Source: Trinickia sp. (lineage in GTDB: Bacteria > Pseudomonadota > Gammaproteobacteria > Burkholderiales > Burkholderiaceae). From it: DNA of 64,000 nucleotides. The notes below the pieces were generated by a model that saw only the letters and a list, made by a program, of their open reading frames with translations, did no database searches and was not told where the DNA came from. Made by a program: the position numbers and the translations under genes. The DNA lies in NCBI RefSeq assembly GCF_051954495.1, contig NZ_JBQCHR010000082.1, forward strand, positions 5,874 to 69,873. The letters are read 5' to 3'. Shown here one piece after another: positions 37,768 through 55,178 of this stretch (position 1 is its first letter; every line of letters begins with the position of its first letter).

Positions 37768-37850
37768 TCCGTTTTCTCCCTATTGAAAGTGACAGTCGAA
37801 TCTGAACAATCGTGCTATCTTAACTTCGAACGCTGCATCGCCGAGGTCAC

Positions 37851-38699: not shown

Positions 38700-39316
38700 G
38701 GGTGTTCGGCATGAGCAAGCGCTGCGCAACGATTGAGGGCCGCGGACGAAACCTATGGCAAGCCGCAACCAGACTCTCGTCATTCAATGAGTTGCTTGGC
38801 GAACACTGCAGAGCGCTAACGTCGGAATTCGGCATTCCAGTCGAGATCAAAGACCGCGCGCTCACGGCCGCGTTCTTTGCCTGGGCTCGAATCGTCGAAA
38901 ACCACGAGGCAGATCCTCATCGGAAAAGCCCGGATTATTTTCAATTTCTGATCGGGTCTCTCCTCGCACAACTGCTCGCGACCCATACGATCGACACGGT
39001 GCCGCGTACCGAGGGACATCGGTCTGGAGAAGATGACAACGCGATCGCCAACTGGTGGCCAACCGGGTTCGCCACGACAACGTACTGCGTTGAACTCGTG
39101 CGCAAAGTCATCGCTCAAGAATGCGGCCAGATCGTCACGACATCGGAGAAATTTGGCGATATCAAGATCTGGCAATCGTTCCGCGAAAATCTGCTCGAAG
39201 AACCATCGATCGCCATCGCGTACTTCGATGACTTCATGGGGCTGGAACCGAACTGGCGCAATCCGTCTTTTTTTCGCGAACGTACCGCCAACCTATCCAG
39301 AACACTCATCCGCTAA
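38696..39316 (+). CDS. Hypothetical protein
   Basis: ~200-aa ORF ending in WQSFRENLLEEPSIAIAYFDDFMGLEPNW, which looks like a conserved block; no family recognised. Confidence 0.6.
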   Translation: MRVFGMSKRCATIEGRGRNLWQAATRLSSFNELLGEHCRALTSEFGIPVEIKDRALTAAFFAWARIVENHEADPHRKSPDYFQFLIGSLLAQLLATHTIDTVPRTEGHRSGEDDNAIANWWPTGFATTTYCVELVRKVIAQECGQIVTTSEKFGDIKIWQSFRENLLEEPSIAIAYFDDFMGLEPNWRNPSFFRERTANLSRTLIR

Positions 39317-39402: not shown

Positions 39403-40941
39403 CTAAACCGATAGATTGAACGTGGAAACGGCCGCGTGCAGAGTATCCGCCTGCCTTTCGAGCGAATGCGTGACGACGGCCGTTTGTTCGACCATCGCCG
39501 CATTCCGCTGTGTTGCTTCATCCATCAACGCAACGGCACGACTCACTTCGGCGATACTCTGGCTTTGGTCGCCGCAAGCCGACGCAATCGCGGTGACTAA
39601 GACAGCGACCCGCTCGATCGCTTGCATCGCACCGTCCACAGAGCGGTTAACTTCCGTCGCTTGTCCCGCACTGTCACGAATGACCTGTACAGACGAATCG
39701 ATCAGACCGCTGATTTCTTTGGCGGCGGCCGCGCACCGCTGCGCCAGGGCTCTCACTTCGCCCGCCACGACAGCGAAGCCACGCCCTTGCTCGCCCGCTC
39801 GCGCCGCCTCCACTGCGGCATTGAGTGCCAGGATATTCGTCTGGAACGCAATGGCTTCGATGATGTCAGTGATCTCGGAGATCTTGCCTGCCCGCTCGCC
39901 CACGCGTTCGATGGTGCCGACCAGCCTCTGCGTCGCCTCATCGCCTGCGCGGGCAAGGCCCGACGCCTCGTTGGCCAAGCGGTTGGCCTGGAGCGCGTCA
40001 TCGGCATTGCGCTTCACAGTATCCGACAGTTGCGCCATGGCAGCCGCGGTTCGTTCGAGCGATGCCGCTTGCTGCTGCGTTCGTGCCGTTAGATCCGTCT
40101 GGCCCGAGACAATTTCGGCCGTCGCCGTCCGCATATCTTGCGCCGCTTGCTGTATCAAGCCGATCTCGCGTTCGATTCGCGTCAGCAATACGTTGAACGC
40201 CCCAGCCGTTCGCCCGATCTCGTCCGCTCGCTCGTCCGACGCTCGCAGGCTTAAGTCGAGCGAACGGCTCACATCATCGAGGGTTGTTTCGATCGCACCA
40301 AGGCCGCCGTTCAACGAACGCATCTGCCGCCACACGCCGGCGCCCAGGAAACCGCCACCGATACCGAGAGTGGCGATCATCACGATCAGCAGAAGGTGCG
40401 CCGCGTTCGCACCGGTGTCGCGGGCCTGACGAGACTCGGCTGTGAGGCGTTGAATAAGTTCACCAATGTCTTGTCCTTCTGACATCCCCGGTGGCCGAAG
40501 CCGCTGCTGTACGGTCATGAGCGCTGCCGCGCCATCGCCATTTCTTACCTGATCAATGGCTGCCGTCATGGCGCTCATCGCCGCCGATCGGTCCTGGGTG
40601 AACCGATCGGCCGCCGCCATCGCATCCTCGTGTTTCTCAGCGCCACTGAATAGTTGCGCTTGCTCATCGGAGGCGTGTTGCATGAGCACGGCGAAGTCGG
40701 CGCTTTTCTGACGTGCAACCGGATCAACGTTCGATATGGCTTCCATCAGCGCGAGCGCAGCCAACAGCTGGAAGCGATACGTCTCCTCCAAATACTGGAT
40801 GGAAAGCGTGATCGTTCGATAGTTATCCTCAGCGCGCCGCTCGGATGCCGACACGCCCCATATACCCATCGCCGCGGCGATCGCACACAGCAATCCCAAG
40901 CCAGCGAAAAGCAGGGCAATCCGAGTTCTCAAGTCTTTCAT
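39403..40941 (-). CDS. Methyl-accepting chemotaxis protein
   Basis: Two TM segments, HAMP (DEIGRTAGAFN) and IAFQTNILALNAAVEAARAGEQGRGFAVVA signalling hairpin. Confidence 0.95.
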   Translation of the reverse strand: MKDLRTRIALLFAGLGLLCAIAAAMGIWGVSASERRAEDNYRTITLSIQYLEETYRFQLLAALALMEAISNVDPVARQKSADFAVLMQHASDEQAQLFSGAEKHEDAMAAADRFTQDRSAAMSAMTAAIDQVRNGDGAAALMTVQQRLRPPGMSEGQDIGELIQRLTAESRQARDTGANAAHLLLIVMIATLGIGGGFLGAGVWRQMRSLNGGLGAIETTLDDVSRSLDLSLRASDERADEIGRTAGAFNVLLTRIEREIGLIQQAAQDMRTATAEIVSGQTDLTARTQQQAASLERTAAAMAQLSDTVKRNADDALQANRLANEASGLARAGDEATQRLVGTIERVGERAGKISEITDIIEAIAFQTNILALNAAVEAARAGEQGRGFAVVAGEVRALAQRCAAAAKEISGLIDSSVQVIRDSAGQATEVNRSVDGAMQAIERVAVLVTAIASACGDQSQSIAEVSRAVALMDEATQRNAAMVEQTAVVTHSLERQADTLHAAVSTFNLSV

Positions 40942-41002: not shown

Positions 41003-42262
41003 TCATGCTGCTTGCCGAGGTTCTTCGGCCGACAACGAGAGAGCGCCCTTACGTCTAGGTGCGGTTTCGACAAGCGCAAGCACGACGACTACCCCCAGCG
41101 CGAGGCCGCCCAGCGCAAAGTCGAAGACGTGAGGCAGCCCGAAATTCTGAGCGACGTAGCCGGCGATAACGGGCGCCACACCTCCGCCAAAGATCTCGCC
41201 GATCCCCGAAATCAAACCGATCGTCGAAGCGACGAGTCCTGCGGGAGCCGCTTCCGTCGCAATGGGGCCGCACAACAAACTCAGCAAGCCGATCGAACAC
41301 ATCGAGATGCCGAACAGGAGTGCGAAGAGCTTCACGGGATCCGCGCCCGTCCTGGCGAACACGAACAGTAGAACCGCAGCAACAGCGAACGCACCGATCG
41401 CCGCGACCTTGCGCCCCACGTAGTCGGAGATCCCAGACAAGCTGAACGAGCCGATGAAGCCGCCGAAACCCAGCGCTGAAGCAACGAAGCCCATGCTTTG
41501 CGCGTTCAAATGCAGCACGGCGATGAGGTACGTCGGCACCATCGCGCCGATGACAAAAATTCCGGACATTGCGCAAAGCATCGCTGCGATTGCCACAATG
41601 ACATTCCGATTGGCAAAAATCGAACGCCACTGGACTTTGGGACGATTGATCGAGTTCGCGCGCACCGTCGCCGTCCGCGGGCGATCGCGAAGGATCTTGG
41701 CATACAGCGCCGCCACGATCAGGCCCGGCACAGCGGAAACCATGAAAACCCAATGCCACGAGGGCATGACACGCAGCAACTGGGTGGCGAGAATTGGGGC
41801 GACGCCAAGCCCGAGCAACGAAAACATGCTCATTTGGAAGCCGAGGTTGAAACCACGCCTAGAAGCGAGCGACGCTTCGCTCGTAGCCGCCACGCTAGCC
41901 GGCGTGAAGGCGCCCTCAGCAATCCCCATGATCCCCCGGATCAGCATCAGGCTGGCGAAACCCGTCGCGAGGCCCGAAAAACTCGAGAGCAATGAGAAGG
42001 CGATCATCGTCCACACTAAGATCTTCTTACGGCCGATTCGATCCGAGATCGGCCCGCTCGCGATTGCCCACGCTCCCCATGCAACCGCCAGCACGCCGAT
42101 CAGATTGCCGAGCTGCTGAAAATTCAATCCCAAGTCACGCATCATGTACGGAAACAATGGCGCGACCATCCATCGATCCAATCCGACCAACCCAAAACCA
42201 ACCGCCAACAGCAATACCGTCTTGAACTCGTAAGCACTATCGTGCCTTCCCGGCGTATCCAT
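41003..42262 (-). CDS. MFS transporter
   Basis: GPISDRIGRKK motif A and a 12-TM pattern. Confidence 0.9.
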   Translation of the reverse strand: MDTPGRHDSAYEFKTVLLLAVGFGLVGLDRWMVAPLFPYMMRDLGLNFQQLGNLIGVLAVAWGAWAIASGPISDRIGRKKILVWTMIAFSLLSSFSGLATGFASLMLIRGIMGIAEGAFTPASVAATSEASLASRRGFNLGFQMSMFSLLGLGVAPILATQLLRVMPSWHWVFMVSAVPGLIVAALYAKILRDRPRTATVRANSINRPKVQWRSIFANRNVIVAIAAMLCAMSGIFVIGAMVPTYLIAVLHLNAQSMGFVASALGFGGFIGSFSLSGISDYVGRKVAAIGAFAVAAVLLFVFARTGADPVKLFALLFGISMCSIGLLSLLCGPIATEAAPAGLVASTIGLISGIGEIFGGGVAPVIAGYVAQNFGLPHVFDFALGGLALGVVVVLALVETAPRRKGALSLSAEEPRQAA

Positions 42263-42470
42263 GTTCTCGTCTCCTCCAGTGATGCATTCGAAAGGGTTTC
42301 CTTCAGCTCGGCCCAGCGATGCTTCCTCCAATTTATTTATTTAGTAGTACTAAGTACATTTGTCGAATTCAGATGAAGTATTCACTCCCGCTCTGCAGGC
42401 AGTCGCACCGCGACCAAAGTTCGTGAACGAAACACTATCGTCCCGGGCTCGATAGCGTTCTTAGGGCGAG

Positions 42471-43100
42471 CTACACGATCGTGCAAGCTTCGTCAAATTC
42501 CAGCCGCGGACTGCGTGGAAAGAGCCCAGCCGGATCGCCATAGCCGAGGCAGCAGAGGAAATTGACGCGCAACGACGTGCCTTCGAAAAACAGCGCATTG
42601 ACGACAGGCGCATCGAACCCCGACAACGGTCCGCAGTCGAGCCCCAGCATCCGCGCCGCGAGAATGAAGTAACCGCCCTGAAGTGAGCTGTTTCGCAAGC
42701 ACGTCTCTTCGGCCAGGGCGGGTCGATCTCGAAAGAGATCCCCCGCATTCGGGCGATGCGGAAATAGCTTGGGCAGTTGCTCGTAAAACGCCGTGTCGTG
42801 TGCGACGATCGCGACAACGGGGGCCGTTCGGACTTTCTCGGCGTTGCCGGGCAGGACCGTCGACAACAGCCGTGTTCGTGCCTCCGTCGAACGCACGAAC
42901 ATCACGCGCATGGGCGAGCAATTCATGCTCGTCGGCCCCCACTTGGCGAGTTCGTAGAGCTCGCGAAGCAATTCGTCGGATACCGGGCGAGAAAGCCACG
43001 CGTTCTGACTCCGCGCATGCGTCAACAATTGCGCTCGAGTACGGCTATCAAGAAGGAGAGACTCCGTCATCGGTGCATACTCCAGTTCAACGTGACTCAC
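42471..43100 (-). CDS. Nitroreductase-family protein (RutE/malonic semialdehyde reductase-like)
   Basis: ARSQNAW, GPTSMNCSP, RNSSLQGGY and GLDCGP motifs. Confidence 0.85.
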   Translation of the reverse strand: MSHVELEYAPMTESLLLDSRTRAQLLTHARSQNAWLSRPVSDELLRELYELAKWGPTSMNCSPMRVMFVRSTEARTRLLSTVLPGNAEKVRTAPVVAIVAHDTAFYEQLPKLFPHRPNAGDLFRDRPALAEETCLRNSSLQGGYFILAARMLGLDCGPLSGFDAPVVNALFFEGTSLRVNFLCCLGYGDPAGLFPRSPRLEFDEACTIV

Positions 43101-43654
43101 AACGCCGCCCCACCCTGCCGACCGCTTGCGCCCACCATGAAAAACGCCACGACCGCGGGCGCATCACTCTTGTTGCGCCATGCGTGCCGCGTGCCCTGCT
43201 GCACGACGACATCCGTCGGACGTAGCAATGTCTCGTTTCCATCATCGACCTCCAACCAAATCTCTCCCGACAGAACAATCCCGTAATCGACCGTATCGGT
43301 CCTATGCATGCCCGGGCACTGTGGTTCGAACGTGCGAGCGAGGTCGGGCATTCGCGCCAGGCACTCCTCGCCAGCAGCGACCGGATCGAAGCCCGGCGCA
43401 CTCATCGTGCTGTCTGGCGGAAAGGTGACGATCAAAAGGCTCGTGCCGCCCGCCGGAGGCAGTAAATCGATGTGTTCGTCGGTAGGATCCGTATTGCCGG
43501 AAGGCACGACAGGCGTAGCCGATGTCGTCCAAACCTGTGCGAATGCATGACCGGGGATCGATTCGAAGTTAACAGTGCGAGGCGTTGCACCGTCGGATAC
43601 CACCACGGAGCGGCCGTGGGAGTCGTGACCGGTTACCACTCGTCGGATAGCCAT
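43097..43654 (-). CDS. Cupin-domain protein
   Basis: RRVVTGHD start; MHRTDTVDYGIVLSGE and VVQQGTRHAWRN motifs. Confidence 0.85.
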   Translation of the reverse strand: MAIRRVVTGHDSHGRSVVVSDGATPRTVNFESIPGHAFAQVWTTSATPVVPSGNTDPTDEHIDLLPPAGGTSLLIVTFPPDSTMSAPGFDPVAAGEECLARMPDLARTFEPQCPGMHRTDTVDYGIVLSGEIWLEVDDGNETLLRPTDVVVQQGTRHAWRNKSDAPAVVAFFMVGASGRQGGAAL

Positions 43655-43735
43655 GAGTACTCTCGATGCAAGGGATAAAGAAACGCAATGCGCCCGGCCG
43701 GATCGTCATGTGCCGGCCAGGCGCCTATGCCATGC

Positions 43736-44848
43736 TCAAGGGCAAATCACGTAATTGCTGAAACCGCCGTTGCGGTTCTCGATCCCGCCGAGTGCGGTGT
43801 TGATGTCCTCGAGTTTGAACGTGCAATGCTCGAACACCGACAGATCGACAACGCCAGACTCGACCATATCGGCCATTTCCTGCCCCTGCCCCGCCGTGAA
43901 CCACGCAGACCCGCTGAAGCGCTGATCATTGTCCATCATGTAGTGCAGATTCATGGGCACTTCGCCGGCCACGGCCCCGATATTGACGAGATGGCCGCCG
44001 CGCCGCAGCGTCCTCAAGGTCTCGCGCAGCGTCTCTTGAGGCGCGCCCGGTCCCAGTGCGTCGATGACCGCGTCGACACCCGCGCCTTGCGTCACGCGCG
44101 TGGCCCATTCGCTGACCGAACCGTCATCGAGCGACATCACTTCGATGCGATCGGGCGCGATAGCCTTGACGCGCTGCAGGAGTTCCCGGTTCCGTGCCGT
44201 ACCGAGAATCTTCTTCGCGCCCATCGCGAGGCCGAAGAGCGCAACGCCAATACCCAGCGTCCCGCTGATGCCACTCACCAGTATCGTGCTGCTGGGGCCG
44301 ACCTCTGCCTTCTTCAGCGCTCGATAAGCCGTACCCAAATAGCCGAACCGCGCGGCTGTTTCGTGACTGAGATTGTCCGGAATGTTCACGAGGCTGTATT
44401 GTGGCGCCGTCATGTACTCACACAACCCGCCGTACGGGTAGTCGTCGAACATCGCCTGCGAACGTTGGCTGAAGCCGAAGTAGCCGTTGAACGGGTAGTA
44501 AGGGCACGCCGTCGTATCGCCGGAGCGGCAAGCGCGACAGCCGCCGCAGTAGCGCGCGGGATTCACGTACACGCGATCGCCCGGCTTGAATGCATGAACC
44601 TGGCTGCCTACCTCTTCGATCACGCCCGTGGCATCTAGGCCGAAGATCGCCGGCAGTTTCGGCAACGGAAGATGAGGGAACCATTTCTCCCAATTGCTCA
44701 GGACGTTGCCGAGATTCGGCACGATGCCGCATGCCTTCACTTTCACGAGCACGTCGGTCGGGCGCGGCGACGGAACCGGGATGCCCTCCACCACCATCGG
44801 CTCGCCCACGTTGTGCATGCGTGCCGCCCGCATCATCTTCGTCGTCAT
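43736..44848 (-). CDS. MDR/Zn-binding dehydrogenase-family oxidoreductase (ene-reductase candidate)
   Basis: GroES fold, structural Zn motif CGGCRAC...C and GISGTLG; catalytic Zn ligands not seen. Confidence 0.85.
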   Translation of the reverse strand: MTTKMMRAARMHNVGEPMVVEGIPVPSPRPTDVLVKVKACGIVPNLGNVLSNWEKWFPHLPLPKLPAIFGLDATGVIEEVGSQVHAFKPGDRVYVNPARYCGGCRACRSGDTTACPYYPFNGYFGFSQRSQAMFDDYPYGGLCEYMTAPQYSLVNIPDNLSHETAARFGYLGTAYRALKKAEVGPSSTILVSGISGTLGIGVALFGLAMGAKKILGTARNRELLQRVKAIAPDRIEVMSLDDGSVSEWATRVTQGAGVDAVIDALGPGAPQETLRETLRTLRRGGHLVNIGAVAGEVPMNLHYMMDNDQRFSGSAWFTAGQGQEMADMVESGVVDLSVFEHCTFKLEDINTALGGIENRNGGFSNYVICP

Positions 44849-44923
44849 TGTGTGTCTCCTGTCTATCGATACGTGCACGATATTTATTTTTGTGCACAAA
44901 GCAAATCCGCGTTTACCTGAACG

Positions 44924-45505
44924 TCAGCGCAGCCCGTCCAGCCCTTTGATTTCCGATACCTGCAATCCGCCGAGTCGCGCATGAACGCGTCCGCCCGTTG
45001 CCATGGCCAGCGCAAAGGCGATTTCGTTGCGGCGCGGAGCGTCCCATACCGTGACCTCGCATGTTCCGAAGTGGCTCCGGACGTAGGACGCTTGAATGTG
45101 GCCGAGCGGGACCATCAGACGCGTTCCCACGCCGCCGATCGTCTTGGCGGACGGCACGATCGCTTTCGGCCCGCCCAGGGTTTCCCGCATGGCCCATCCG
45201 CCTGCCTCATGCCAGACGGCACCGTGTTCGAGTTCCCCGTCTTCGCCGACGATCGCGCCCTTTCCATATGCCTGTACCTTCGGCGTGCCGCCGAGCTGCG
45301 CCACGAGGCGAGCCGACAGATCCGCGCCGAGCTGACGTAATTCGCTCATGAACGGCAGCAGGTCGGGCTCGTATCGCCCCGCATAAGGATTCGCGACGAT
45401 CGCCGTCGCCACGGCAATCACCAACGGCTCGCCGAGCCGCTCTCCGCCTTCGTGCCAGACCTCTTCGACATCCAGCTTGATCTTTCTTACATTGACTAGC
45501 GACAT
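44924..45505 (-). CDS. Amino acid synthesis (AA_synth) family protein
   Basis: ANPYAGRY, YGKGAIVGEDGELEHGA and DAPRRNEI motifs. Confidence 0.8.
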   Translation of the reverse strand: MSLVNVRKIKLDVEEVWHEGGERLGEPLVIAVATAIVANPYAGRYEPDLLPFMSELRQLGADLSARLVAQLGGTPKVQAYGKGAIVGEDGELEHGAVWHEAGGWAMRETLGGPKAIVPSAKTIGGVGTRLMVPLGHIQASYVRSHFGTCEVTVWDAPRRNEIAFALAMATGGRVHARLGGLQVSEIKGLDGLR

Positions 45506-45634
45506 CCGCTGCTCCGAGGAAATGGTTCGCATCGACTACTGACCTGGCGTCATCTCACACGCCGGCGCTTGCATTATATCCAACGCGGTGTAATATGCAC
45601 AAACATATCTTTTATGCCCATCAGGAGCAAGCAC

Positions 45635-46489
45635 ATGAAACTGGTCTCATACAGACACCAAGGCCAAGCGGGATTCGGCGCAGTCAAGGGTGAAGGCATT
45701 GTCGATCTCGCGACCCGGCTGCCGGCCGTCGCCGATCTCGCGGCGCTCGTATCGAACACGGCTGCACTCGAAGAGGCGCGGCGGCTCATCGACGTGGCCG
45801 AGGCCAACGACTTCGCGCTTGCCGCGGTGGACCTCGAACCAGTCATTCCTCGCCCGAACAAGATCATTTGTGTCGGGATCAACTATGTCGCGCACGCCGC
45901 GGAAGCCGGACGCACGGTGGGACAGTACCCTGTCATCTTCCATCGATTCGCGCAAACGCTCGTGGCGCACGGCGCGCCGATCATCCGCCCGCGTGTCTCG
46001 GAGCATTTCGATTTCGAAGCCGAACTCGCAGTCGTGATCGGCAAGGGTGGGTCGCACATCAAAGCGGAAGCCGCGATGAATCACGTCGCCGGCTATACCT
46101 GCTTCAACGATGCGAGCGTGCGCGATTGGCAGTTTCATACGCATCAGTACGGGATGGGCAAAAACTTCCGCGGCACGGGCTCGCTCGGTCCGTGGCTCGT
46201 GACGGCCGACGAAATCCGTGACTATCGCGAGTTATCGATTCAGGGGCTGCTTAACGGCGAACCCATGCAGACGGGCAGGCTCTCCGAACTCGCGTTCGAC
46301 ATCCCGGCCCTGATCGCATACGTCTCACAGGCCCTCGATTGGGAACCAGGCGACATCTTGGCAACGGGCACGCCGAGCGGAATCGGTTTTAAACGTCAGC
46401 CGCCGATCTTCCTGAAGCCCGGCGACACATTCGACGTTGTCATCCCGAGCATCGGAACGCTGTCGAATTCCGTCGTAGACGAGGCGTAA
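45635..46489 (+). CDS. Fumarylacetoacetate hydrolase family protein
   Basis: KIICVGINY, DFEAEL, FNDASVRDWQ, GKNF and GDILATGTPSG motifs. Confidence 0.92.
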   Translation: MKLVSYRHQGQAGFGAVKGEGIVDLATRLPAVADLAALVSNTAALEEARRLIDVAEANDFALAAVDLEPVIPRPNKIICVGINYVAHAAEAGRTVGQYPVIFHRFAQTLVAHGAPIIRPRVSEHFDFEAELAVVIGKGGSHIKAEAAMNHVAGYTCFNDASVRDWQFHTHQYGMGKNFRGTGSLGPWLVTADEIRDYRELSIQGLLNGEPMQTGRLSELAFDIPALIAYVSQALDWEPGDILATGTPSGIGFKRQPPIFLKPGDTFDVVIPSIGTLSNSVVDEA

Positions 46490-46537
46490 ACACCAAAACG
46501 TCTGACGAAAACGCAAACGAGACATCCGGAGACATCC

Positions 46538-47101
46538 ATGGCAGCCTTGCCGAAAATTCAGTTCACGCACTGCGGGATTTTTTGCAGCGACCTCGAAATG
46601 ATGGTCAACTACTATCGAAAATTCCTGGGCTTCGTCGTCAGTGATAGGGGTGTCGCCTCGACAGGGCATCATTTGTACTTCATGACGCAGGATCCCGAGA
46701 TTCACCATCAACTCGTCCTGTTCGATGGAAAGCCGACGGATTTGCCGTTCAACCCCGTCAACCAACTGTCGCTGCTGCTCGACTCCATCGCCGATTTGCA
46801 GTCGTACTATCGGCGAGCCGTGAAAGCCGGAGTTAAAGGCATCGAGCAAGTCGATCATGGCAACGCCTGGTCGATCTATTTCAAGGATCCAGAAGGCAAC
46901 CCTATCGAGTTGTACGTCGACAGCCCGTTCTTCACCGCTCAGCCGTGCCGCGAGCCGCTCAACCTCGACCTTTCGATAGACGAAATTCTGAAGCAGACCG
47001 AAGCCATGTGTCTGCGCCGCCCCGGCTTCTTATCGCGCAAGGCTTGGATTGCCGAGATGCGCGAGCGGATTGCCGCTCAGCGCGTCGCGTTCGACGCTTG
47101 A
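46538..47101 (+). CDS. VOC-family protein (single-domain extradiol dioxygenase-like)
   Basis: THCGI, HHQLVL and HGNAWSIYFKDPEGNPIE motifs supply His/His/Glu metal ligands. Confidence 0.85.
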   Translation: MAALPKIQFTHCGIFCSDLEMMVNYYRKFLGFVVSDRGVASTGHHLYFMTQDPEIHHQLVLFDGKPTDLPFNPVNQLSLLLDSIADLQSYYRRAVKAGVKGIEQVDHGNAWSIYFKDPEGNPIELYVDSPFFTAQPCREPLNLDLSIDEILKQTEAMCLRRPGFLSRKAWIAEMRERIAAQRVAFDA

Positions 47102-47120
47102 CTGCCAACCGGGTCCTCAC

Positions 47121-48560
47121 ATGAAGCGTAATTTCATCAGCGGTCACTGGCAGGAAAGCACGGCATCGCGCAGGGACATGAATCCGTCCGACCTGGACGA
47201 TGTCGTCGGGGAGTATGCCCAAGCCGATGCCGACGACGCGAGGGCAGCCATCGAAGCGGCTCGCGCGGCACAAGCAGCATGGGCGCATAGCGGCATCCAG
47301 GCGCGCTCGACGTCACTCGATTTCATCGGCTCTGAGCTACTGGCAAGGCAAACGGAACTCGGCACGCTGCTTTCCCGAGAGGAAGGCAAAACGCTTGCCG
47401 AAGGAATGGCGGAAGTGGCTCGTGCCGGCCAAATCTTCAAGTTCTTCGCCGGAGAGGTGCTGCGCACGGGAGGCGAAAAGCTGCCGTCCGTTCGTCCCCT
47501 GGTGGCAGTGGAAGTCACACGCGAGCCAGTAGGCGTCATCGGCATCATCACGCCCTGGAATTTCCCGGTCGCCATTCCGGCGTGGAAGATCGCCCCGGCC
47601 CTTGCCTACGCAAACTGCGTCGTCTTCAAGCCGGCGGATCTCGTCCCTGCATCGGCATGGGCCCTCGCCGAAATCATTTCTCGCAGCGGGATTCCCGCAG
47701 GCGTATTCAACCTTGTCATGGGACGCGGCAGCGTCGTCGGCAATGCGATCGTCTCGTCACCCGACGTCAATGCCGTTTCGTTCACGGGCTCGGTCGAAAC
47801 CGGACGCACGCTATTGCAGCGCGGCGCGCAACAGTTCAAGCGCATGCAGCTCGAGATGGGCGGCAAGAACCCGCTCGTCGTACTCGACGACGCGGATCTC
47901 GACGTCGCGATCGATTGCGCCGTTCAGGGTGCCTACTATTCGACGGGACAACGGTGCACTGCTTCGTCGCGATTCATCGTTCAAAAGGGAATCTATCCCC
48001 GGTTCGTTTCGCGTCTGACCGAAGCGGTCGAAAACCTTCGCGTCGGTCATGCGCTCGATCCGCAAACGCAGATCGGCCCGGTAGTCGACGAGTCGCAATT
48101 GCGGCACGACGAGGGCTATTTGGGCATCGGTAAGAACGAAGGGGCAAAACTCGTCTGCGGAGGTCAGATTCTGTCGAGACGTACCCGTGGGCACTACCTA
48201 TCGCCTGCGCTATTCGTCGATGCGACACCGAAGATGCGCATCGCGCGTGAAGAAATCTTTGGCCCGATCGCGTGCGCCATCGCCGTGGACAGCTATGAGG
48301 AGGCGTTAGCGGTCGCGAACGACAGCCCGTTCGGGCTCTCGTCGGGCATCTGCACCACATCGCTCAAATACGCGGCGCATTTCAAGCGTCATGTGAACAG
48401 CGGTATGACGATGGTGAACGTGCCGACCGCCGGCGTCGATTATCACGTTCCGTTCGGCGGAACGAAGGCGTCCAGCTACGGGCCGCGCGAACAAGGCACG
48501 TATGCGGTCGATTTCTTCACGACCGTCAAAACCGCTTACACGAAGGCATACTTCGATTAA
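47121..48560 (+). CDS. Aldehyde dehydrogenase
   Basis: ITPWNFP, FTGS, LEMGGKNP, GQRCTA and EEIFGP motifs. Confidence 0.93.
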   Translation: MKRNFISGHWQESTASRRDMNPSDLDDVVGEYAQADADDARAAIEAARAAQAAWAHSGIQARSTSLDFIGSELLARQTELGTLLSREEGKTLAEGMAEVARAGQIFKFFAGEVLRTGGEKLPSVRPLVAVEVTREPVGVIGIITPWNFPVAIPAWKIAPALAYANCVVFKPADLVPASAWALAEIISRSGIPAGVFNLVMGRGSVVGNAIVSSPDVNAVSFTGSVETGRTLLQRGAQQFKRMQLEMGGKNPLVVLDDADLDVAIDCAVQGAYYSTGQRCTASSRFIVQKGIYPRFVSRLTEAVENLRVGHALDPQTQIGPVVDESQLRHDEGYLGIGKNEGAKLVCGGQILSRRTRGHYLSPALFVDATPKMRIAREEIFGPIACAIAVDSYEEALAVANDSPFGLSSGICTTSLKYAAHFKRHVNSGMTMVNVPTAGVDYHVPFGGTKASSYGPREQGTYAVDFFTTVKTAYTKAYFD

Positions 48561-48643
48561 TACATGTGCCGGCCAAGCCGGCCGGCACGCTGCAAGCGCC
48601 GCCTCATGCACGCCTGCGCAACAGCATTCCATAGGGAGGAGAC

Positions 48644-50263
48644 GTGGACTTCGATTTGATCATCGTCGGGCTAGGACCGGTTGGCGCGGTAGCGGCCAAT
48701 TTGGCCGGCGAGGCCGGACTGCGCACGCTCGTGCTCGAAAAGTCCCTAACGGTTTTCGATAAGCCTCGCGCAATGGGTTTCGATCAGGAAATCATGCGGA
48801 TCTTCGGCGATCTCGGACTCGCCGATAAAATCGCACCTTACGTGATGCCCTATCGGCCTTCCGAATATCGCACGACCGATTCCAGCCTGATTCGCCGCAT
48901 CGAGGCTGCCGAGCCGCCGTTCCAACTCGGTTGGGCGCCCAACTACGTTTTCATGCAGCCTCAGATCGAAAGCCTGTTGCGTGAAAATCTTGCCCGCTTT
49001 CCATCGGTGACCGTCAAGCTAGGCGCGCAAGTCGATGCCGTGGTGTCCGGCGAAGATGGCGCTTGCGTCACCGTGGCCGAGCCGAACGTGCCAAGCGCAG
49101 CGCGCACGTACCGATCACACTATCTGCTCGCATGCGACGGCGGCACGAGCCCGATCCGCATGGGGCTCGGCTTGGAGATGGAAGACCTCGATTTCGACGA
49201 ACCGTGGCTCGTAGTCGATGTCGTCCTCAAGGACGGATGCGGCGCAAACCTGCCGACGACCAACGTCCAATACTGTGAGATCGAGCGCCCTTGCACATTC
49301 GTAGTCGGGCCGGGTCAAGTCCGGCGCTGGGAGTTCATGATCAACGCCGACGAAACGCCGGCACAAGCGACGGAGCCCGCGTTCGTCCGCCGGCTCATCT
49401 CGCGCTGGCTCGACGAGAGCGAATATGACATCTGGCGCGCCTCGGCCTATCGCTTCCATGCCCTCGTCCTGCGTGAATGGCGGTCGGATCGTGTGTTCTT
49501 CCTAGGCGACGCTGCGCACATGACACCCCCGTTTCTGGCCCAAGGGATGTGCCAAGGGATCCGTGATGCAGCCAACCTCGTCTGGAAGCTGGCCCTCGTC
49601 AACCGTGGCGCGGCCAGTCCCGATCTGCTCGACACCTATCAGGCCGAACGGCTGCCGCACGTGAAGCAAACCACGCTCGTGACGAAATCGCTCGGCAAGG
49701 TGATCTGCGAACGCGATCCCGCAGCCGCACGCGAGCGGGACAAACGCTTGCTCGAAGAAATGGCTGCCAATCCGCGAGGAACTGTCCGGCAATCGTTGAT
49801 TCCAGGGCTCAGCGCGGGCCTTCTGTCCGCATCGAATGAGGGCCCGCGCGGTCAATTGTTTCCGCAACCGCTCGTCAGGACTGCGGAAGGCCGCAAATGC
49901 CTGCTCGACGAAGCAACCGGCATGACGTTTCGTATCGTCGTCAGGGATAACACCGATGCAGCCGTCATCGAACGCATGGCGGCGGAATGGAGTGTCCTGT
50001 GCGATGTTCCGTTGGAGCGGGTCGTGATCAGGACAGAGGCGCTGACGTCAGGCGCGCCTTCGTATGCCTACCAGGACGTCGACGGGGTACTCGTCAACTG
50101 GATGCACCAGCATGATTGCGCCGCCGTGATCGTGCGGCCCGATCACTACGTGTACGGCGGCTGCCGTAAGGCGGAAGACGCGGTCACGATGATCCGTGAG
50201 TTGGCCGCCGCGCTGCCGGCAGGCAAGGCGCACGAACATCCGAGAAGAGCCGCCTGCGCTTGA
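48644..50263 (+). CDS. MhpA-like FAD-dependent aromatic hydroxylase
   Basis: VGLGPVG, LACDGG, LGDAAHMTPPFLAQGMCQGIRDA and VRPDHYV motifs. Confidence 0.9.
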   Translation: MDFDLIIVGLGPVGAVAANLAGEAGLRTLVLEKSLTVFDKPRAMGFDQEIMRIFGDLGLADKIAPYVMPYRPSEYRTTDSSLIRRIEAAEPPFQLGWAPNYVFMQPQIESLLRENLARFPSVTVKLGAQVDAVVSGEDGACVTVAEPNVPSAARTYRSHYLLACDGGTSPIRMGLGLEMEDLDFDEPWLVVDVVLKDGCGANLPTTNVQYCEIERPCTFVVGPGQVRRWEFMINADETPAQATEPAFVRRLISRWLDESEYDIWRASAYRFHALVLREWRSDRVFFLGDAAHMTPPFLAQGMCQGIRDAANLVWKLALVNRGAASPDLLDTYQAERLPHVKQTTLVTKSLGKVICERDPAAARERDKRLLEEMAANPRGTVRQSLIPGLSAGLLSASNEGPRGQLFPQPLVRTAEGRKCLLDEATGMTFRIVVRDNTDAAVIERMAAEWSVLCDVPLERVVIRTEALTSGAPSYAYQDVDGVLVNWMHQHDCAAVIVRPDHYVYGGCRKAEDAVTMIRELAAALPAGKAHEHPRRAACA

Positions 50264-50283
50264 TCGACAAGGCATTCTGTGCA

Positions 50284-50315
50284 GCGCGAGGGGTCGTCAC
50301 CCTCGCGCTTTTTTT
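50284..50315 (+). terminator. Intrinsic terminator
   Basis: GCGCGAGGG-GTCGTCA-CCCTCGCGC followed by TTTTTTT. Confidence 0.85.
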
Positions 50316-50405
50316 GTTTGCTCGACGAAGAATTCGATCTTGCATATCGGCATATTTTGCGCATAAAATCTATCTCATCGACAAATCCGCAGTCAACTCA
50401 CGCCC

Positions 50406-51101
50406 ATGGACTCAACATCCGCTTCGAACGGTGTACCGCTGATCGACGTCGCTTTCGCCCGAATGAAGACGTCGATCATCCGATGCGAACTCGCACCGGG
50501 TACGCGGCTGAAGGTCGAAAGCCTCTCCAAGGCATACGGGCTGAGCAGTTCGCCGATCCGTGAGGCCTTGAACCGGCTTGCGCAAGACGGCATCGTCCAA
50601 GCGACGGAAAACCGTGGGTTCTGGGTCGCTCCGATCAGCATCGAAGATTTTAAGGACATCACGCGGCTGCGCGTGCTCCTGGAACTAGAGGCTCTCAGCG
50701 ATTCGATCGTGCATGGCGACGAAGAATGGGAAGTGGCCGTGCTCACGGCCTTTCATCGATTGAGCCTCGCGGAGAAACGTCTCGGCTCCGGCCCGGTGGC
50801 ACTCGACGACGACTGGTCCGAACGCCACCGCGCCTATCATATGGCGTTGCTGTCGGCCACGCCCAGCGCCCTGCTCTCCAATATGGTGGCTTCGCTCTTC
50901 GATCGCGCCGAGCGGTATCGTCGCTATTCCGCTCTATATCGAACCGAAGAGCGCCATAAGAACAGCGAGCACGAAGGACTCATGAAGGCCGCGATCGATC
51001 GAGACGCTGAAAAAGCTACACGTCTGCTGCGCAAGCATATCGAAGGTACGCTGACACGTGTGACAGCGGCGCTCGAGCGCCAATTAGCTACCGTCCAATA
51101 A
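50406..51101 (+). CDS. GntR/FCD-family regulator
   Basis: LAPGTRL...SSSPIREAL wHTH and an FCD domain (HRAYH...EH). Confidence 0.9.
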   Translation: MDSTSASNGVPLIDVAFARMKTSIIRCELAPGTRLKVESLSKAYGLSSSPIREALNRLAQDGIVQATENRGFWVAPISIEDFKDITRLRVLLELEALSDSIVHGDEEWEVAVLTAFHRLSLAEKRLGSGPVALDDDWSERHRAYHMALLSATPSALLSNMVASLFDRAERYRRYSALYRTEERHKNSEHEGLMKAAIDRDAEKATRLLRKHIEGTLTRVTAALERQLATVQ

Positions 51102-51208
51102 AGTCCAATAAACAAGCGCCGCGCTGGTGATAAACCGCGCGGCGTCTTCCTTTTCTGCGAGTATCGACGAGGCAACGTATTGCCTCGCCTTCCCGATACT
51201 CGCCTTCC

Positions 51209-52327
51209 TCAAAACACCGTTTGCATCCCGATCCGGCCAATGAACTGCGAGCGGCCGCTCGACGGGCCGAACGTTCCGTTGATGACCGCCGTCGCGCCAG
51301 AGTTAGTCAACTGATAGGCGCCTTGGACATAAACCGCCGTCCGTTTGGACAGGAAATACTTGGCAACGGCAGCAACTTGATGCGCGTGGTTATGATCCAC
51401 CCCGGCATTGCCCCACATGTAGGTGTAGGCGAGGCTCGTTGCGAACGCAGGCGTGAAGCGATAGAGCGCGCCCGCTTCCGCGGCATTCACTGCCGCACCG
51501 TTCTGAGTATTGCGCGTATTAGTGAAGAGCGCCGTTAGCAGCAGTTTCTGCCCTTTGTATTTCGCACCGAAGCCGAAGTTTCGAATGCTGTCACCGAGCA
51601 TCGCCGCGTAGCGAACGTCGGTATAGGCCGCACCGAACGCGAACGGCCCGGTGGTGTAGCTCGCACCAAGACTATCCGCACTATTCTGACGAAAGTTTCC
51701 GGCAGTGCCGCCAAAGGCGTACATGCCCCCGAACCGCAGCCCCCCGAAGAGCGGGCTCGTGTATTTAACCGAGTTATTCAAGGGGGTGTCGCCGTTCATG
51801 CGATCGAAATCGAACGCCTCGTCCGGTGGCGAATCCGGAATGCCCAACTTGGCAAACGGACCATCGCGGAACTGATAAAAGCCGCCGCCATACATCGCCA
51901 TATCGGCGCCCACGTCGGCAAACAGCGTGTCGACCATGAAGTCGTATTGACGGCCGAGCGAGAGCTTCCCGTACCGATCGTTATCGAGGCCTACCCACGC
52001 ATTGCGCGCGAACAGACCGACTCCTGAGCCGCTGCCGTTCGATTTCTGAGAAACGAGCGTTCCATTCAACGAGAACTGTGTCGTCAACTGAAAAACCGCC
52101 CGCGTGCCGTTACCCAAGTCTTCCGTGCCCTTGAACCCCATCAGGTTCGGCAGCGCGATGCCGTCGTCCATCCTCCATGCGGAATGTCCCCCGATATTGC
52201 TGATGTACGACACCCCGGCATCGAGCAAGCCCCACAGCGTCACACTGCTTTGAGCGTGCGCACTCGGCACGACGCCGACACACGTTCCCACCGCGACTGT
52301 CGCAGCGGCCATGATGCGCTTCTTCAC
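51209..52327 (-). CDS. Gram-negative trimeric porin
   Basis: AHA-QSSVTLWGLLDAG, GFKGTEDLG, NNSVKY, YFLSKRT and terminal F; GTG start with GGAGGAG RBS. Confidence 0.92.
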   Translation of the reverse strand: MKKRIMAAATVAVGTCVGVVPSAHAQSSVTLWGLLDAGVSYISNIGGHSAWRMDDGIALPNLMGFKGTEDLGNGTRAVFQLTTQFSLNGTLVSQKSNGSGSGVGLFARNAWVGLDNDRYGKLSLGRQYDFMVDTLFADVGADMAMYGGGFYQFRDGPFAKLGIPDSPPDEAFDFDRMNGDTPLNNSVKYTSPLFGGLRFGGMYAFGGTAGNFRQNSADSLGASYTTGPFAFGAAYTDVRYAAMLGDSIRNFGFGAKYKGQKLLLTALFTNTRNTQNGAAVNAAEAGALYRFTPAFATSLAYTYMWGNAGVDHNHAHQVAAVAKYFLSKRTAVYVQGAYQLTNSGATAVINGTFGPSSGRSQFIGRIGMQTVF

Positions 52328-52716
52328 TTTCGTCTCCTCCGATTGCATTGCTTGGATCACATTTGACGCACACATCAACTACACATACACATTTCACTCT
52401 TTTATGCATATTCCATCAAACGCCTGTGATGGTCAATGCCGGTGTGGGCAAATCGGGCTCAGTGTTTACACGCGTGTGCGTCGCGGAAAAACAGGAGGAT
52501 TGAACTTGCTAAGGAGAGAAAGCGAGAAGGCGAGTCACGTCGCGAGCGGAAAGCCTCGCATGTGGAGGGCTACGATGAGGAATGGGACAGGATGAGGGGA
52601 TGCACGCTATGAGGCGCCGCGTCTTGCCGCGGGATCGGCCATGTCACCACATCCGCAATGCCGTGGCAGTACAAGTTCGGCACCGAAGGCGCGAATGATG
52701 CCTAGTAGAGATGAAG

Positions 52717-53043
52717 CTAGTTCTGAGCTTGTTGCTCAAGGTGGGGAGCCCCGGAACGGGCCCTCCGTGTTCGCGATCGTTCGGAAGACCGACCAAGTCC
52801 GCGCCGATCGACTTCATCTTTAGCGGCTCGAATTGCATCGTAGAACGTGCGCTCAGTGGCGACACATGTTCGATCGACGTTCACCACCCAGCGATCGAAC
52901 ATGTAGCGCCAGCGGATCCGACGCTCCTCGAGCAGCTCAGAGAACCAACGCCAGACCGACGCATCTTCGGCGTTGACAGCGGCAGCTGCGTTGACGCGAA
53001 CGCGTTGCATGGGGTCCATCGGATTACGCTCGCTCGAACCCAT
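52717..53043 (-). CDS. Small hypothetical protein
   Basis: AEDASVWRWFSELLEERRIRW block looks protein-like; start codon uncertain. Confidence 0.5.
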   Translation of the reverse strand: MGSSERNPMDPMQRVRVNAAAAVNAEDASVWRWFSELLEERRIRWRYMFDRWVVNVDRTCVATERTFYDAIRAAKDEVDRRGLGRSSERSRTRRARSGAPHLEQQAQN

Positions 53044-53069
53044 TTGTTATCGACATGTCGGCGCAACGC

Positions 53070-53933
53070 TCACGCCCGAGCGTCGGAGTAAACATAAAAG
53101 CCCCGCCCGCTCTTTCGTCCCAGATAGCCGGCATCGACCATCTCCCTGAGCAACGGCGCGGGGCGATACTTCGGATCGTTGAAATCGCGGCACAGCACAT
53201 CCATGATCGCCAGCGTCGTATCCAACCCGATCAGATCGGCCAATGCGAGCGGCCCAATGGGATGATTCGCTCCGAGCTTCATACCCGCATCGATCTGTTC
53301 GGCGCTCGCGAGCCCTTCATGTAACGAGAAAATCGCTTCGTTGATCATCGGTGCGAGAATCCGGTTGACCGCGAAGCCCGGCGAGTTCTTCACGTCGATC
53401 GGCGTCTTGCCGAGTCGCTCTGCGAATCGGACAACCGTATCGAATGTCGCATCGCTCGTCTGCAAGCCGCGAATGACTTCGACGAGTTCCATGACGGGTA
53501 CGGGGTTGAAGAAATGCAGTCCTACGAAGCGGCTGGGGTGTGCAAGCACGGCCCCGAGTTTCGTCACCGATACCGATGACGTATTGGTCGCGATGATGGC
53601 ATCGGATCGAACAATGCCGTCGAGCGCCTTGAGAATGTCCTGCTTGATCTGCAAGCGCTCAGTCGCGGCCTCGATGACCAGCTCGCAGGCTGCAAGTTGT
53701 CGCACTTCGGTGCTTCCGTTTACTCGCGCGCGTATCGAGCTCGCTTCGCTATCCGAGATCGTTCCCTTCGACACCATGCGCGCGAGGCCGGCCTCGACAC
53801 CGAGCAAACCACGACATATCGCTTCGTCGTCGATATCATTGAGAATGACGTTCCATCCCGCGACAGCACAGACCTGCGCGATGCCGCGCCCCATCTGCCC
53901 GGCGCCGATAATCCCTACCATCTGTATGTTCAT
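53070..53933 (-). CDS. 3-hydroxybutyryl-CoA dehydrogenase
   Basis: [32 protein letters not shown] and [15 protein letters not shown] motifs. Confidence 0.92.
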
Positions 53934-55168
53934 ATCGCTTTCTTCGTGCGCAACGCGTCGATCTCCGCTGCGCTCGCTGCAAGCCAATCCGACAACACCT
54001 CTTCCGTATGCTGCCCGAGCGTCGGTGGTGCGTTCCGATACTGCACGGGCGACTCCGACAAGCGAATCGGATTCGCCACGAGCGGCACGTCCTTCGCGAC
54101 TGGATGAGGCATCTCGATCCGTGTGCCACGAGCCTGCACGTGAGGATCCGCGAACACTCGATCGAGGGTATTGATCGGGCCGCAGGGCACACCGGCCGCC
54201 TCCATCGCGGCAACCCATTCATCGGTCGTCCGGCGCACTGTCATGCCGTGAATCAGCGCGATCAATTCGTTCCGATGCTTGACGCGCTGCGGATTCGTGG
54301 CGAAGCGTTCGTCGCTCGACCATTCCGGTTTGCCCAGCGTCTTGCACAAATTCGCAAATTGACTGTCGTTGCCGACGGCCACGATCATGTATCCATCAGC
54401 TGTCGGAAACTCCTGGTACGGCACGATGTTCGGATGCGCATTCCCCATGCGTCGAGGCACGACGCCGCCGATCAAATAATTCGCTGCTTGGTTAGCAAGG
54501 CACGCGATCTGAACATCAAGCAGCGCCAGATCGATATGCTGCCCTTCGCCTGATTGTTCCCGACGCTTCAATGCAGCCAGGACTGCAACCGTCGCGTACA
54601 GCCCCGTCATGATGTCGGTCAGCGCAACGCCGACCTTGATCGGGCCAGCGCCTTCCGTGCCGTCGGGACGGCCGGTCAAGCTCATCAGGCCGCCCATGCC
54701 CTGAATCAGAAAGTCGTAGCCGGCGCGCGACGCGTAAGGGCCGGTCTGGCCAAACCCGGTGATCGAGCAATAGACGAGTCGCGGATTGATTGCCTTCAGG
54801 CTTGCGTAATCGAGCCCATACTGTGCCAGGCCGCCCACCTTGAAATTCTCGAGTACGACGTCGGCCTTCGCCGCCAACTGCCGCACAACGCGCTGCCCTT
54901 CCGCACTCGCGATATCGATCGTTACCGATCGCTTATTGCGGTTGGCGCTCAGGTAGTAGGCTGATTCGCCGGTCGAATGACCTTCGGGATCATTCAACCA
55001 GGGCGGGCCCCAAGCGCGCGTCTCGTCGCCCGCACGCGGGCGCTCCACCTTGATGACGTCGGCGCCGAGATCGGCCAGCAACTGCCCCGCCCACGGGCCC
55101 GCGAGCACGCGAGAAAGATCGAGGACGCGCACGCCCGCGAGCGCGCCCGGTTGCAAGGTATCGTTCAT
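53930..55168 (-). CDS. CaiB/BaiF class III CoA-transferase (glutarate CoA-transferase-like)
   Basis: [17 protein letters not shown] and [15 protein letters not shown] motifs. Confidence 0.9.
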
Positions 55169-55178
55169 GGCCGTCGGA

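Follow-up and report, generated by a model that had tools for sequence, protein, structure and literature searches.

A probable Trinickia counterpart of the Pseudomonas mandelii 7HK4 hcd locus for hydroxycoumarin degradation

A 64,000-nucleotide stretch of Trinickia sp. DNA (NCBI RefSeq assembly GCF_051954495.1, contig NZ_JBQCHR010000082.1, positions 5,874 to 69,873 of the forward strand; hereafter the window) was analyzed, and the aromatic catabolic cluster at its positions 41003–52327 is probably a Burkholderiaceae version (Trinickia/Paraburkholderia type) of the hcd locus for hydroxycoumarin degradation known from Pseudomonas mandelii 7HK4, pathway included. A preliminary description of the window had matched the cluster to the hcd genes at the level of gene families, and had named low identity to the Hcd proteins among the observations that would speak against the match. 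The correspondence was found to go further than that. The whole hcdGFED/hcdCBA/hcdR locus was syntenic, and the proteins were 54–78% identical to those of two Pseudomonas proxy loci (L035 and L041). The cluster is a well-supported new form of a known pathway; the type of system itself is not new.

Coumarins are major root exudates which shape iron nutrition and the root microbiota. Two bacterial coumarin routes have been described genetically, the hcd route in one Pseudomonas strain only; in the literature searched, the hcd genes were discussed for 7HK4 only. In that strain the locus comprises hcdGFED, hcdCBA, hcdR and hp4, with hcdA coding for a flavin adenine dinucleotide (FAD) hydroxylase of ~62 kDa, hcdB for an extradiol dioxygenase of ~20 kDa, hcdD for a DUF1185 protein, hcdE for a protein of the Zn-alcohol dehydrogenase type, hcdF for a cupin and hcdG for a flavin mononucleotide (FMN) reductase (PMC6222606, PMC7913881). 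HcdC is a FAH-family protein of 31.2 kDa (PMC6222606). The genes measured, hcdABCR, hp4, hcdD and hcdE, were each up ~1000-fold with the plant compound 7-hydroxycoumarin (umbelliferone) or with 3-(2,4-dihydroxyphenyl)propionate (PMC7913881). With NADPH, HcdE converts 7-hydroxycoumarin to 7-hydroxy-3,4-dihydrocoumarin, which is hydrolyzed to 3-(2,4-dihydroxyphenyl)propionate (PMC7913881). HcdA turns the latter into 3-(2,3,5-trihydroxyphenyl)propionate by ipso-hydroxylation with a 1,2-shift, HcdB converts this product to 2,4-dihydroxy-6-oxonona-2,4-dienedioate, and the ring-fission product is consumed when HcdC is present (PMC6222606). When hcdA was expressed alone, the triol product autoxidized to a red compound (PMC6222606). 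Succinate and acetylpyruvate were suggested by the 7HK4 authors as the products of HcdC (PMC6222606), and the HcdF cupin was proposed by them to be a lactone hydrolase. The present comparison adds a predicted HcdR operator, an HcdE signature lacking the catalytic zinc that would fit ene-reductase chemistry, an aldehyde dehydrogenase (ALDH) apparently lost by the studied strain, and two unrelated reductase folds occupying one slot.

Relationship to the Pseudomonas hcd loci

Nineteen published 7HK4 primers were taken from the supplements of PMC6222606 and PMC7913881. Direct mapping of the primers on the window was abandoned as the sequences were too diverged; only hcdA_F, at the start of the monooxygenase gene (16/20 bases), and hcdE_XhoR, at the stop of the MDR gene (17/21), fell in meaningful places. 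The latter primer encodes NYVICP, which is the C-terminus of the window MDR protein. The primers were therefore used instead to choose Pseudomonas proxy loci. Species-representative genomes were scanned with the window monooxygenase, which yielded 80 loci. In Pseudomonas sp. LjRoot277 (L035) and GM41 (L041), 10 of the 19 primers were located in the expected genes with consistent amplicons and ~90% base identity, and these positions fixed the hcdA, B, C, D, E and hp4 open reading frames (ORFs), so that the two loci could serve as close proxies. Identities to Hcd proteins were determined by tblastn against L035/L041, not against the 7HK4 sequences themselves (MW310253, MW310254, MH346032-34).

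Identity of the window proteins to the proxies was 58% for HcdA (over 524 amino acids), 67% for HcdB, 66% for HcdC, 78% for HcdD, 68% for HcdE, 54% for HcdF and 62% for HcdR. Gene order was as in L035/L041, with (G)-F-E-D on one strand and C-B-A on the opposite strand. When proxy HcdA and HcdE were searched in the 6.1-Mb genome to which the window belongs, the window genes were the top matches (58% and 68%), and the next paralogs reached 39% and 55%, respectively. The predicted masses of HcdE, C, B and A (Table 1) agree with the published sizes. A maximum-likelihood tree built from the monooxygenases placed the window sequence in a Trinickia/Paraburkholderia clade nested in a group (SH-aLRT 97) with the 7HK4-like Pseudomonas sequences, and this HcdA group lay far from the own-genome paralog used as the outgroup.

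The residues of the core enzymes are consistent with these assignments. The HcdE-like protein was aligned to the archaeal alcohol dehydrogenases 2eer and 1jvb, and was found to carry Val43, Leu71 and Tyr170 at the positions of the catalytic-zinc ligands, which we take to be Cys38, His68 and Cys154 in those enzymes. The Pseudomonas proxy and Variovorax carry these substitutions too, without variation. In the window protein the structural-zinc site is complete (Cys4; C101/104/107/115). Loss of the catalytic-zinc ligands fits MDR hydride transfer to a C=C bond and not an alcohol dehydrogenase, and the protein is predicted to be an ortholog of the MDR-type NADPH coumarin ene-reductase. In the HcdB-like protein H11, H56, H57, H107 and E124 were invariant across a 34-sequence alignment, which provides candidates for a His/His/Glu set. 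A sequence search of the PDB gave no relative; the AlphaFold (AF2) model (predicted local distance difference test score, 91.6) had the one-domain L-DOPA extradiol dioxygenase 6on1 as its top PDB fold match, and model and fold match point to a one-domain VOC extradiol dioxygenase. In the HcdC-like protein, a putative FAH-family hydrolase, the metal motifs of that family (E-x-E and D) are invariant. The FAD motifs GxGxxG, DG and GD are present in the HcdA-like protein, the predicted ortholog of the 3-(2,4-dihydroxyphenyl)propionate ipso-hydroxylase. The HcdF-like cupin has a G.RHAWRN motif which is invariant across three families, and the HcdD-like protein matches PDB entry 3byq (DUF1185) at 1e-68. 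The genes for HcdD and HcdF flank hcdE on the same strand in the order D-E-F. The GntR-family regulator gene hcdR adjoins hcdA and is co-oriented with it in the window; in Pseudomonas it is on the opposite strand.

The likeness to the 7HK4 locus thus extends to orthologous HcdA, B, C, D, E, F and R and to the divergent two-operon layout. Six genes had been regarded in the preliminary description as additions to the hcd set, and this required revision. The AA_synth and GntR proteins are HcdD and HcdR of the published locus, and the cupin is likewise its HcdF (PMC7913881). The RutE-like enzyme is better described as a replacement, as the HcdG slot is occupied by this nitroreductase-fold protein in the window and by FMN_red in Pseudomonas. 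The ALDH, located between hcdB and hcdA, is indeed absent from the 7HK4 lineage, but most hcd-type clusters have it. A difference from 7HK4 is seen in the porin and the MFS transporter; the porin (with or without the MFS transporter and a methyl-accepting chemotaxis protein [MCP]) stands in place of the Pseudomonas hp4/DUF1302-DUF1329-BNR-MMPL genes. The host of the window cluster is a betaproteobacterium, as against Pseudomonas for 7HK4.

Distribution was tallied over the 80 loci from the monooxygenase scan. The core order, cupin-MDR-DUF1185 on one side and FAH-VOC-(ALDH)-monooxygenase-GntR on the other, recurred in ~60 loci from three bacterial families; it is found in the Burkholderiaceae (Trinickia, Paraburkholderia, Burkholderia, Ralstonia), present in many Pseudomonas and rearranged in the Comamonadaceae (Variovorax, Acidovorax). 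The nearest relative of the window cluster was that of Trinickia sp. Y13 (87–97% per protein), and Paraburkholderia sp. UYCP14C also has a near-identical one. A monooxygenase ortholog (E ≤ 1e-150) was found in 5/15 other sampled genomes of the same genus and in 10/200 of the family, so the cluster is a patchy accessory trait. Many of the carrier records name root, nodule or rhizosphere isolates.

Candidate HcdR operator and proposed pathway

Between hcdD and hcdC lies a block of sequence whose conservation extends from Burkholderiaceae to Pseudomonas. Its core is the palindrome TTRTGCAYAA (extended form, T4-RYGCAY-A4), and the consensus is kept in Burkholderiaceae, Pseudomonas and Comamonadaceae. 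Allowing ≤1 mismatch, five sites were located in the 64-kb window, four of them in promoter regions of the cluster. The hcdC promoter has a -35 element TTGCAT (45569) and a -10 element TAATAT (45592) overlapped by the box ATATGCACAA (45593-45602). The box upstream of hcdE, at 44890, is a perfect TTGTGCACAA and is conserved in loci L001, L002 and L006. At the hcdR promoter (-35 TTGCAT at 50340) the box at 50357 overlaps the -10 element, which implies autoregulation, and in the porin promoter (TTGACC-N17-GAATAT) the box lies at the -10 (52402).

In the related loci, boxes were counted within 160 bp upstream of each gene. They were present upstream of hcdC in 56/61 loci, hcdR in 57/60, the porin gene in 16/20 and Pseudomonas hp4 in 16/31. 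Eighteen of 19 composition-matched control palindromes reached ≤4/60 loci (≤2/60 upstream of hcdC); the 19th overlaps the real motif. Since hp4, which is preceded by the box, is induced by 7-hydroxycoumarin in 7HK4 (PMC7913881), the box appears to mark the inducible regulon. On the basis of this conservation TTRTGCAYAA is likely to be the HcdR operator.

The fifth site in the window (56444-56462; TTGTGC-N7-GCACAA) was read as a LysR-type site and was not assigned to the hcd regulon. It is situated in the divergent region between an acyl-CoA dehydrogenase operon and a LysR-type gene starting near 56484 and resembles a LysR T-N11-A site, the match to the HcdR box being a chance resemblance. No HcdR box was found in two paralogous clusters of the same genome (L081, L082).

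Orthology with the Hcd proteins allows the 7HK4 reaction scheme to be transferred to the window, with 7-hydroxycoumarin as the presumed substrate in the Trinickia organism. We infer that HcdR (GntR/FCD) would repress both divergent operons by binding TTRTGCAYAA over the -10 regions (promoter occlusion), would be released from the operator when substrate is present, and would autoregulate. The box-controlled porin would carry the compound through the outer membrane. HcdE, an MDR protein without a catalytic zinc site, would use NADPH to reduce the C3=C4 bond of 7-hydroxycoumarin, and the dihydrocoumarin lactone would open, spontaneously or aided by HcdF or HcdD, to 3-(2,4-dihydroxyphenyl)propionate. 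Ipso-hydroxylation of this acid by HcdA would give 3-(2,3,5-trihydroxyphenyl)propionate, a triol which the nitroreductase-fold protein, acting as a quinone reductase, may hold in the reduced state. Extradiol ring cleavage of the triol by HcdB and hydrolysis of the trioxo-diacid by the FAH-family HcdC would then lead to central metabolites.

Orcinol and resorcinol pathways of Pseudomonas putida run via 2,3,5-trihydroxytoluene or hydroxyquinol. A flavin hydroxylase gives a 1,2,4-triol, extradiol cleavage gives a trioxo acid, and C-C hydrolysis gives small acids with acetylpyruvate or pyruvate. The same logic is followed in the hcd scheme with different substrates, the likeness being one of pathway description; the hcd scheme adds the coumarin ene-reductase front end and the ipso-hydroxylation with 1,2-shift. 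An outcome of succinate and acetylpyruvate from HcdC parallels the orcinol pathway. Were HcdC to act as an acylpyruvase, as is typical of FAH-family enzymes, pyruvate and 3-oxoadipate would be formed instead.

The xenA/couC/mhpBCDEFRT route of Pseudomonas sp. NyZ480 (PMC13181038) likewise starts with reduction of the lactone C=C bond and passes via hydroxyphenylpropionate. It uses the Old Yellow Enzyme-type XenA, CouC and the classical Mhp meta-pathway (PMC13181038), none of which is in the window cluster, where the reductase is of the MDR type and the lower pathway is VOC/FAH. The NyZ480 route is unrelated to the hcd cluster.

The HcdG slot, the aldehyde dehydrogenase and alternative substrates

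The nitroreductase-fold protein (PF00881) scored 280.6 bits against NCBIfam NF003768 (RutE-type; cutoff, 152). The start of its gene overlaps the hcdF stop by 4 nt and it is thus translationally coupled to hcdF. In the Pseudomonas proxy the HcdG slot holds the unrelated PF03358 FMN reductase (FMN_red). Proxy HcdG, searched by tblastn in the related loci only, was found beside hcdF in no Burkholderiaceae cluster; the nitroreductase-fold protein was present in nearly all Burkholderiaceae loci for which the upstream flank was recovered. In other Pseudomonas lineages the slot is filled by a thiolase plus FMN_red, or by a 3-hydroxyacyl-CoA dehydrogenase-family gene. A RutE role in the Rut pyrimidine pathway was considered and rejected, given the overlap with the hcdF stop and the lack of a rutA-G context; no Rut family other than the RutE-like protein was detected in 36.7-56.4 kb by Pfam scans.

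Among the enzymes of hydroxyquinol pathways, the nitroreductase-fold TcpB and the FMN_red-type PnpB are quinone reductases. Two unrelated flavoprotein folds, each with a quinone-reductase precedent, are the same two that share the HcdG slot; this likeness is by description, and the window protein is grouped by NCBIfam with RutE-type malonic semialdehyde reductases. As the HcdA product is a 1,2,4-triol that autoxidizes to a red compound, a quinone reductase is suggested for this position, and by analogy the HcdG-slot flavoprotein is probably an NAD(P)H-dependent enzyme of this kind that keeps the autoxidizable triol reduced.

The ALDH reached no NCBIfam equivalog cutoff. Its top PDB match was the HpaE-type semialdehyde dehydrogenase 2d4e, and it has both catalytic residues, Cys (GQRC) and Glu (LEMGGK). 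The enzyme was found in the same slot in most Burkholderiaceae loci, in Ralstonia and in 11 non-fluorescens Pseudomonas-clade loci (65–69% identity), and was uniformly absent from the fluorescens/mandelii clade with 7HK4-like loci. From this distribution the simplest reading would be that the ALDH is ancestral and was lost in the 7HK4 lineage. It may serve aldehyde-type ring-fission products. The idea of a DUF1185-ALDH partnership, which rests on one sentence of PMC7913881, is weakened because HcdD occurs across the related loci with or without the ALDH.

Several points weigh against equating the window cluster with the 7HK4 pathway. The proxies are ~90% identical to 7HK4 at the primer sites, and HcdA, at 58% identity, could differ in substrate or regiochemistry. 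HcdG is without a homolog in the window cluster, and the extra ALDH is without a role in the published pathway. As for the operator, the box was defined after being seen and the counted loci are phylogenetically related.

The ALDH bears directly on two related alternatives. In one, which we regard as unlikely, the ALDH-bearing form is the ancestral and majority hcd cluster and encodes a broader or different pathway, with a dehydrogenative branch and a CoA-linked lower pathway. HcdC might act there as an acylpyruvase yielding pyruvate and 3-oxoadipate, and the pathway, if real, could extend to the iron-mobilizing root coumarins esculetin, scopoletin and fraxetin. A thiolase embedded in some Pseudomonas hcd clusters was considered as a PcaF-type 3-oxoadipyl-CoA thiolase, which would have backed pyruvate and 3-oxoadipate as the HcdC products; the PcaF model failed (400 < 597) and the AtoB-type model passed (709 > 688), so the thiolase is AtoB-type.

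In the other, also unlikely in our judgment, the same enzyme chassis acts on other or broader substrates (esculetin, scopoletin, daphnetin or resorcinol-type phenylpropanoids), the ALDH forms a dehydrogenative branch for aldehyde-ended ring-fission products, and the neighboring coenzyme A (CoA) enzymes make up the lower pathway. The prevalence and apparently ancestral state of the ALDH between hcdB and hcdA, the HpaE-type character of its closest solved relative and the modest HcdA identity would suit such a range, as would the thiolase, 3-hydroxyacyl-CoA dehydrogenase or CoA-transferase genes which recur in or beside hcd clusters in several arrangements. HcdE of 7HK4 also reduces esculetin and 6-hydroxycoumarin in vitro (PMC7913881), and no HcdC products were identified in the 7HK4 work (PMC6222606). 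Set against this, 7-hydroxycoumarin is the sole coumarin, of those tested, that supports growth of 7HK4 (PMC6222606), and orthology holds for all five catalytic or accessory core proteins. HcdR and its operator are shared with the 7HK4 lineage in conserved form, an argument for an inducer of the same class. The CoA genes adjoining the window cluster resemble a distinct glutarate-type module controlled by a LysR regulator of its own. The 7HK4-type pathway for 7-hydroxycoumarin is accordingly preferred.

An Mhp-type pathway for 3-(3-hydroxyphenyl)propionate and 3-hydroxycinnamate is very improbable. The name comes from the public records, where close HcdA orthologs are all called MhpA ('bifunctional 3-(3-hydroxy-phenyl)propionate/3-hydroxycinnamic acid hydroxylase') or 2-polyprenyl-6-methoxyphenol hydroxylase. 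In the homolog search the experimentally shown HcdA function appeared on no close ortholog record, and no 7HK4 record was recognizable among the HcdA homologs, all matches being labeled MhpA-like. The NCBIfam subfamily model PRK06183.1-3 (3-(3-hydroxyphenyl)propionate/3-hydroxycinnamic acid hydroxylase) does give 471 bits against a cutoff of 390, but four MhpA equivalog models score 366, 276, 244 and 242 bits with cutoffs of 546–1135. The monooxygenases of E. coli mhp (MhpA-F) and of the window cluster are both members of the broad class A FAD family, and the MhpB-F partners are not in the window cluster: Pfam scans found no MhpB-type (LigB) dioxygenase, MhpC alpha/beta-hydrolase or MhpDEF. 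The cluster carries hcd-type VOC, FAH, MDR, cupin and DUF1185 genes instead. HcdA, under the same public label, was shown experimentally to ipso-hydroxylate 3-(2,4-dihydroxyphenyl)propionate (PMC6222606), and the MhpA label on its orthologs is flagged here as a mislabeling concern.

That the genes are unrelated neighbors forming no functional unit can be dismissed with near certainty, since synteny across ~60 loci of three families excludes chance juxtaposition and the 4-nt overlap, short operon gaps, single terminator after hcdA and operator common to four promoters also speak against it, even though the MFS, MCP and downstream acyl-CoA genes are of uncertain membership.

Locus layout, transport genes and neighboring gene sets

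ORFs in 39-57 kb of the window were scanned with Pfam, and starts were refined from homolog alignments and the positions of ribosome-binding sites (RBS). All eleven gene families named in the preliminary description for 41003–52327 were confirmed in place by Pfam, and the reading frames of all cluster genes are open and intact (Table 1). The locus runs from 41003, where the MFS gene stops, to 52327, the porin start supported by an RBS; the MFS start was refined to an ATG with a GGAGGA RBS (42262). Intergenic gaps are short in both the leftward operon, hcdD-hcdE-hcdF-nitroreductase gene, and the rightward operon, hcdC-hcdB-ALDH gene-hcdA, and the terminator after hcdA is the only one in the latter. 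No RNA families were found in 39-57 kb with Rfam.

Table 1. Genes and control elements of the hcd-type cluster, in window positions
Feature	Position	Strand	Basis or description
Methyl-accepting chemotaxis protein (4HB/TarH-type sensor)	39403..40941	-	Pfam MCPsignal/TarH/4HB_MCP/HAMP
MFS transporter (anion:cation symporter type)	41003..42262 (ORF to 42331)	-	Pfam MFS_1
Nitroreductase-fold flavoprotein, RutE-like, HcdG position	42471..43100	-	Pfam Nitroreductase
HcdF-like cupin	43097..43654	-	Pfam Cupin_2
HcdE-like MDR, 39.9 kDa	43736..44848 (ORF to 44899)	-	Pfam ADH_N/ADH_zinc_N
Candidate internal HcdR operator upstream of hcdE	44889..44900		Perfect palindrome TTTGTGCACAAA
HcdD-like DUF1185/AA_synth, 193 aa	44924..45505 (ORF to 45532)	-	Pfam AA_synth 1e-65
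Divergent hcdD/hcdC control region	45506..45634		Promoter elements and candidate HcdR box
HcdC-like FAH-family hydrolase, 284 aa, 30.5 kDa	45635..46489 (ORF from 45569)	+	Pfam FAA_hydrolase
HcdB-like one-domain VOC extradiol dioxygenase, 187 aa, 21.4 kDa	46538..47101	+	Pfam Glyoxalase/VOC
NAD(P)+ aldehyde dehydrogenase	47121..48560 (ORF from 47049)	+	Pfam Aldedh
HcdA-like class A FAD monooxygenase, 539 aa, 59.5 kDa	48644..50263	+	Pfam FAD_binding_3
Intrinsic terminator after hcdA	50283..50309	+	10-bp stem, 8 G-C pairs, then T-run
Candidate HcdR box at hcdR promoter	50355..50368		TTTTGCGCATAAAA
HcdR-like GntR/FCD regulator	50406..51101	+	Pfam GntR+FCD
Porin_4 general porin with signal peptide	51209..52327 (ORF to 52378)	-	Pfam Porin_4
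Candidate HcdR box at -10 of porin promoter	52402..52411		TTATGCATAT

In 20 Burkholderiaceae loci the gene next to hcdR codes for the porin; hp4 (DUF1302) takes this place in Pseudomonas, and the porin is likely the outer-membrane entry route. The MFS gene occurs in only five related loci (L002, L003, L005, L008, L010); it is possibly an uptake system for an aromatic acid, and its membership in the cluster is uncertain. No HcdR box was found upstream of the MFS gene. An AT-rich TTAGTACTACTAAATAAAT-like motif is located upstream of it at 42263-42400 (minus strand), as also in these five loci, and a short hairpin, CTATCG-N9-CGATAG, lies 3' of the nitroreductase gene. Motif and hairpin together point to separate transcription of the MFS/MCP pair, controlled by a different regulator. 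The MCP has 94% identity to its positional equivalent in Trinickia sp. Y13 (L002) and 62% to a protein encoded beside the cluster of P. lacunae (L014); its gene has no HcdR box upstream, and its membership is uncertain. In ALDH-bearing Pseudomonas loci an unrelated HBM-type MCP adjoins hcdR (L039:12655-14580). The chemoreceptors beside the clusters may indicate chemotaxis towards the substrate.

The genes for CoA-thioester enzymes that resemble a glutarate-type module are located at 53070-56363 (minus strand), and such enzymes recur at loci L001-L019, L021-23, L036-52 and L046. In Pseudomonas lineages an AtoB-type thiolase gene lies between hcdF and FMN_red in eight loci, and a 3-hydroxyacyl-CoA dehydrogenase gene directly follows hcdF in five. 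A CoA-transferase III gene adjoins hcdF in Halopseudomonas. An acyl-CoA dehydrogenase-CoA-transferase(-3-hydroxyacyl-CoA dehydrogenase) operon is situated within 1-2 kb of the cluster, on either side, in 11 Burkholderiaceae loci.

Two paralogous gene sets were noted in the same genome. The first (L081; C34:6661-23770) includes an HcdE paralog (55% to the proxy) and comprises genes for a PAS-MCP, a FAH protein, an enolase-like protein, a two-domain VOC dioxygenase, a CMD-family protein, an MDR protein, FMN_red and an MFS transporter; it may represent a second lactone or coumarin-type pathway. The second (L082; C128:58000-77025) is an hcdABC-like module with genes for a porin, an MFS transporter, a FAD monooxygenase (39% to proxy HcdA), a FAH protein, a divergent one-domain VOC protein and an IclR regulator.

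Outside the cluster, a 126-amino acid ORF at 52711-53091 (plus strand) had no Pfam or NCBIfam match and is conserved (59–74%) in the same place in loci L001, L002 and L012. Three consecutive ORFs of 388, 282 and 206 amino acids at 36703-39316 (plus strand) had no Pfam match; an alternative minus-strand ORF at 36793-37767 makes these gene calls doubtful. Directly before the window start, a further class A FAD monooxygenase (27% to proxy HcdA) is encoded at C82:4579-5616.

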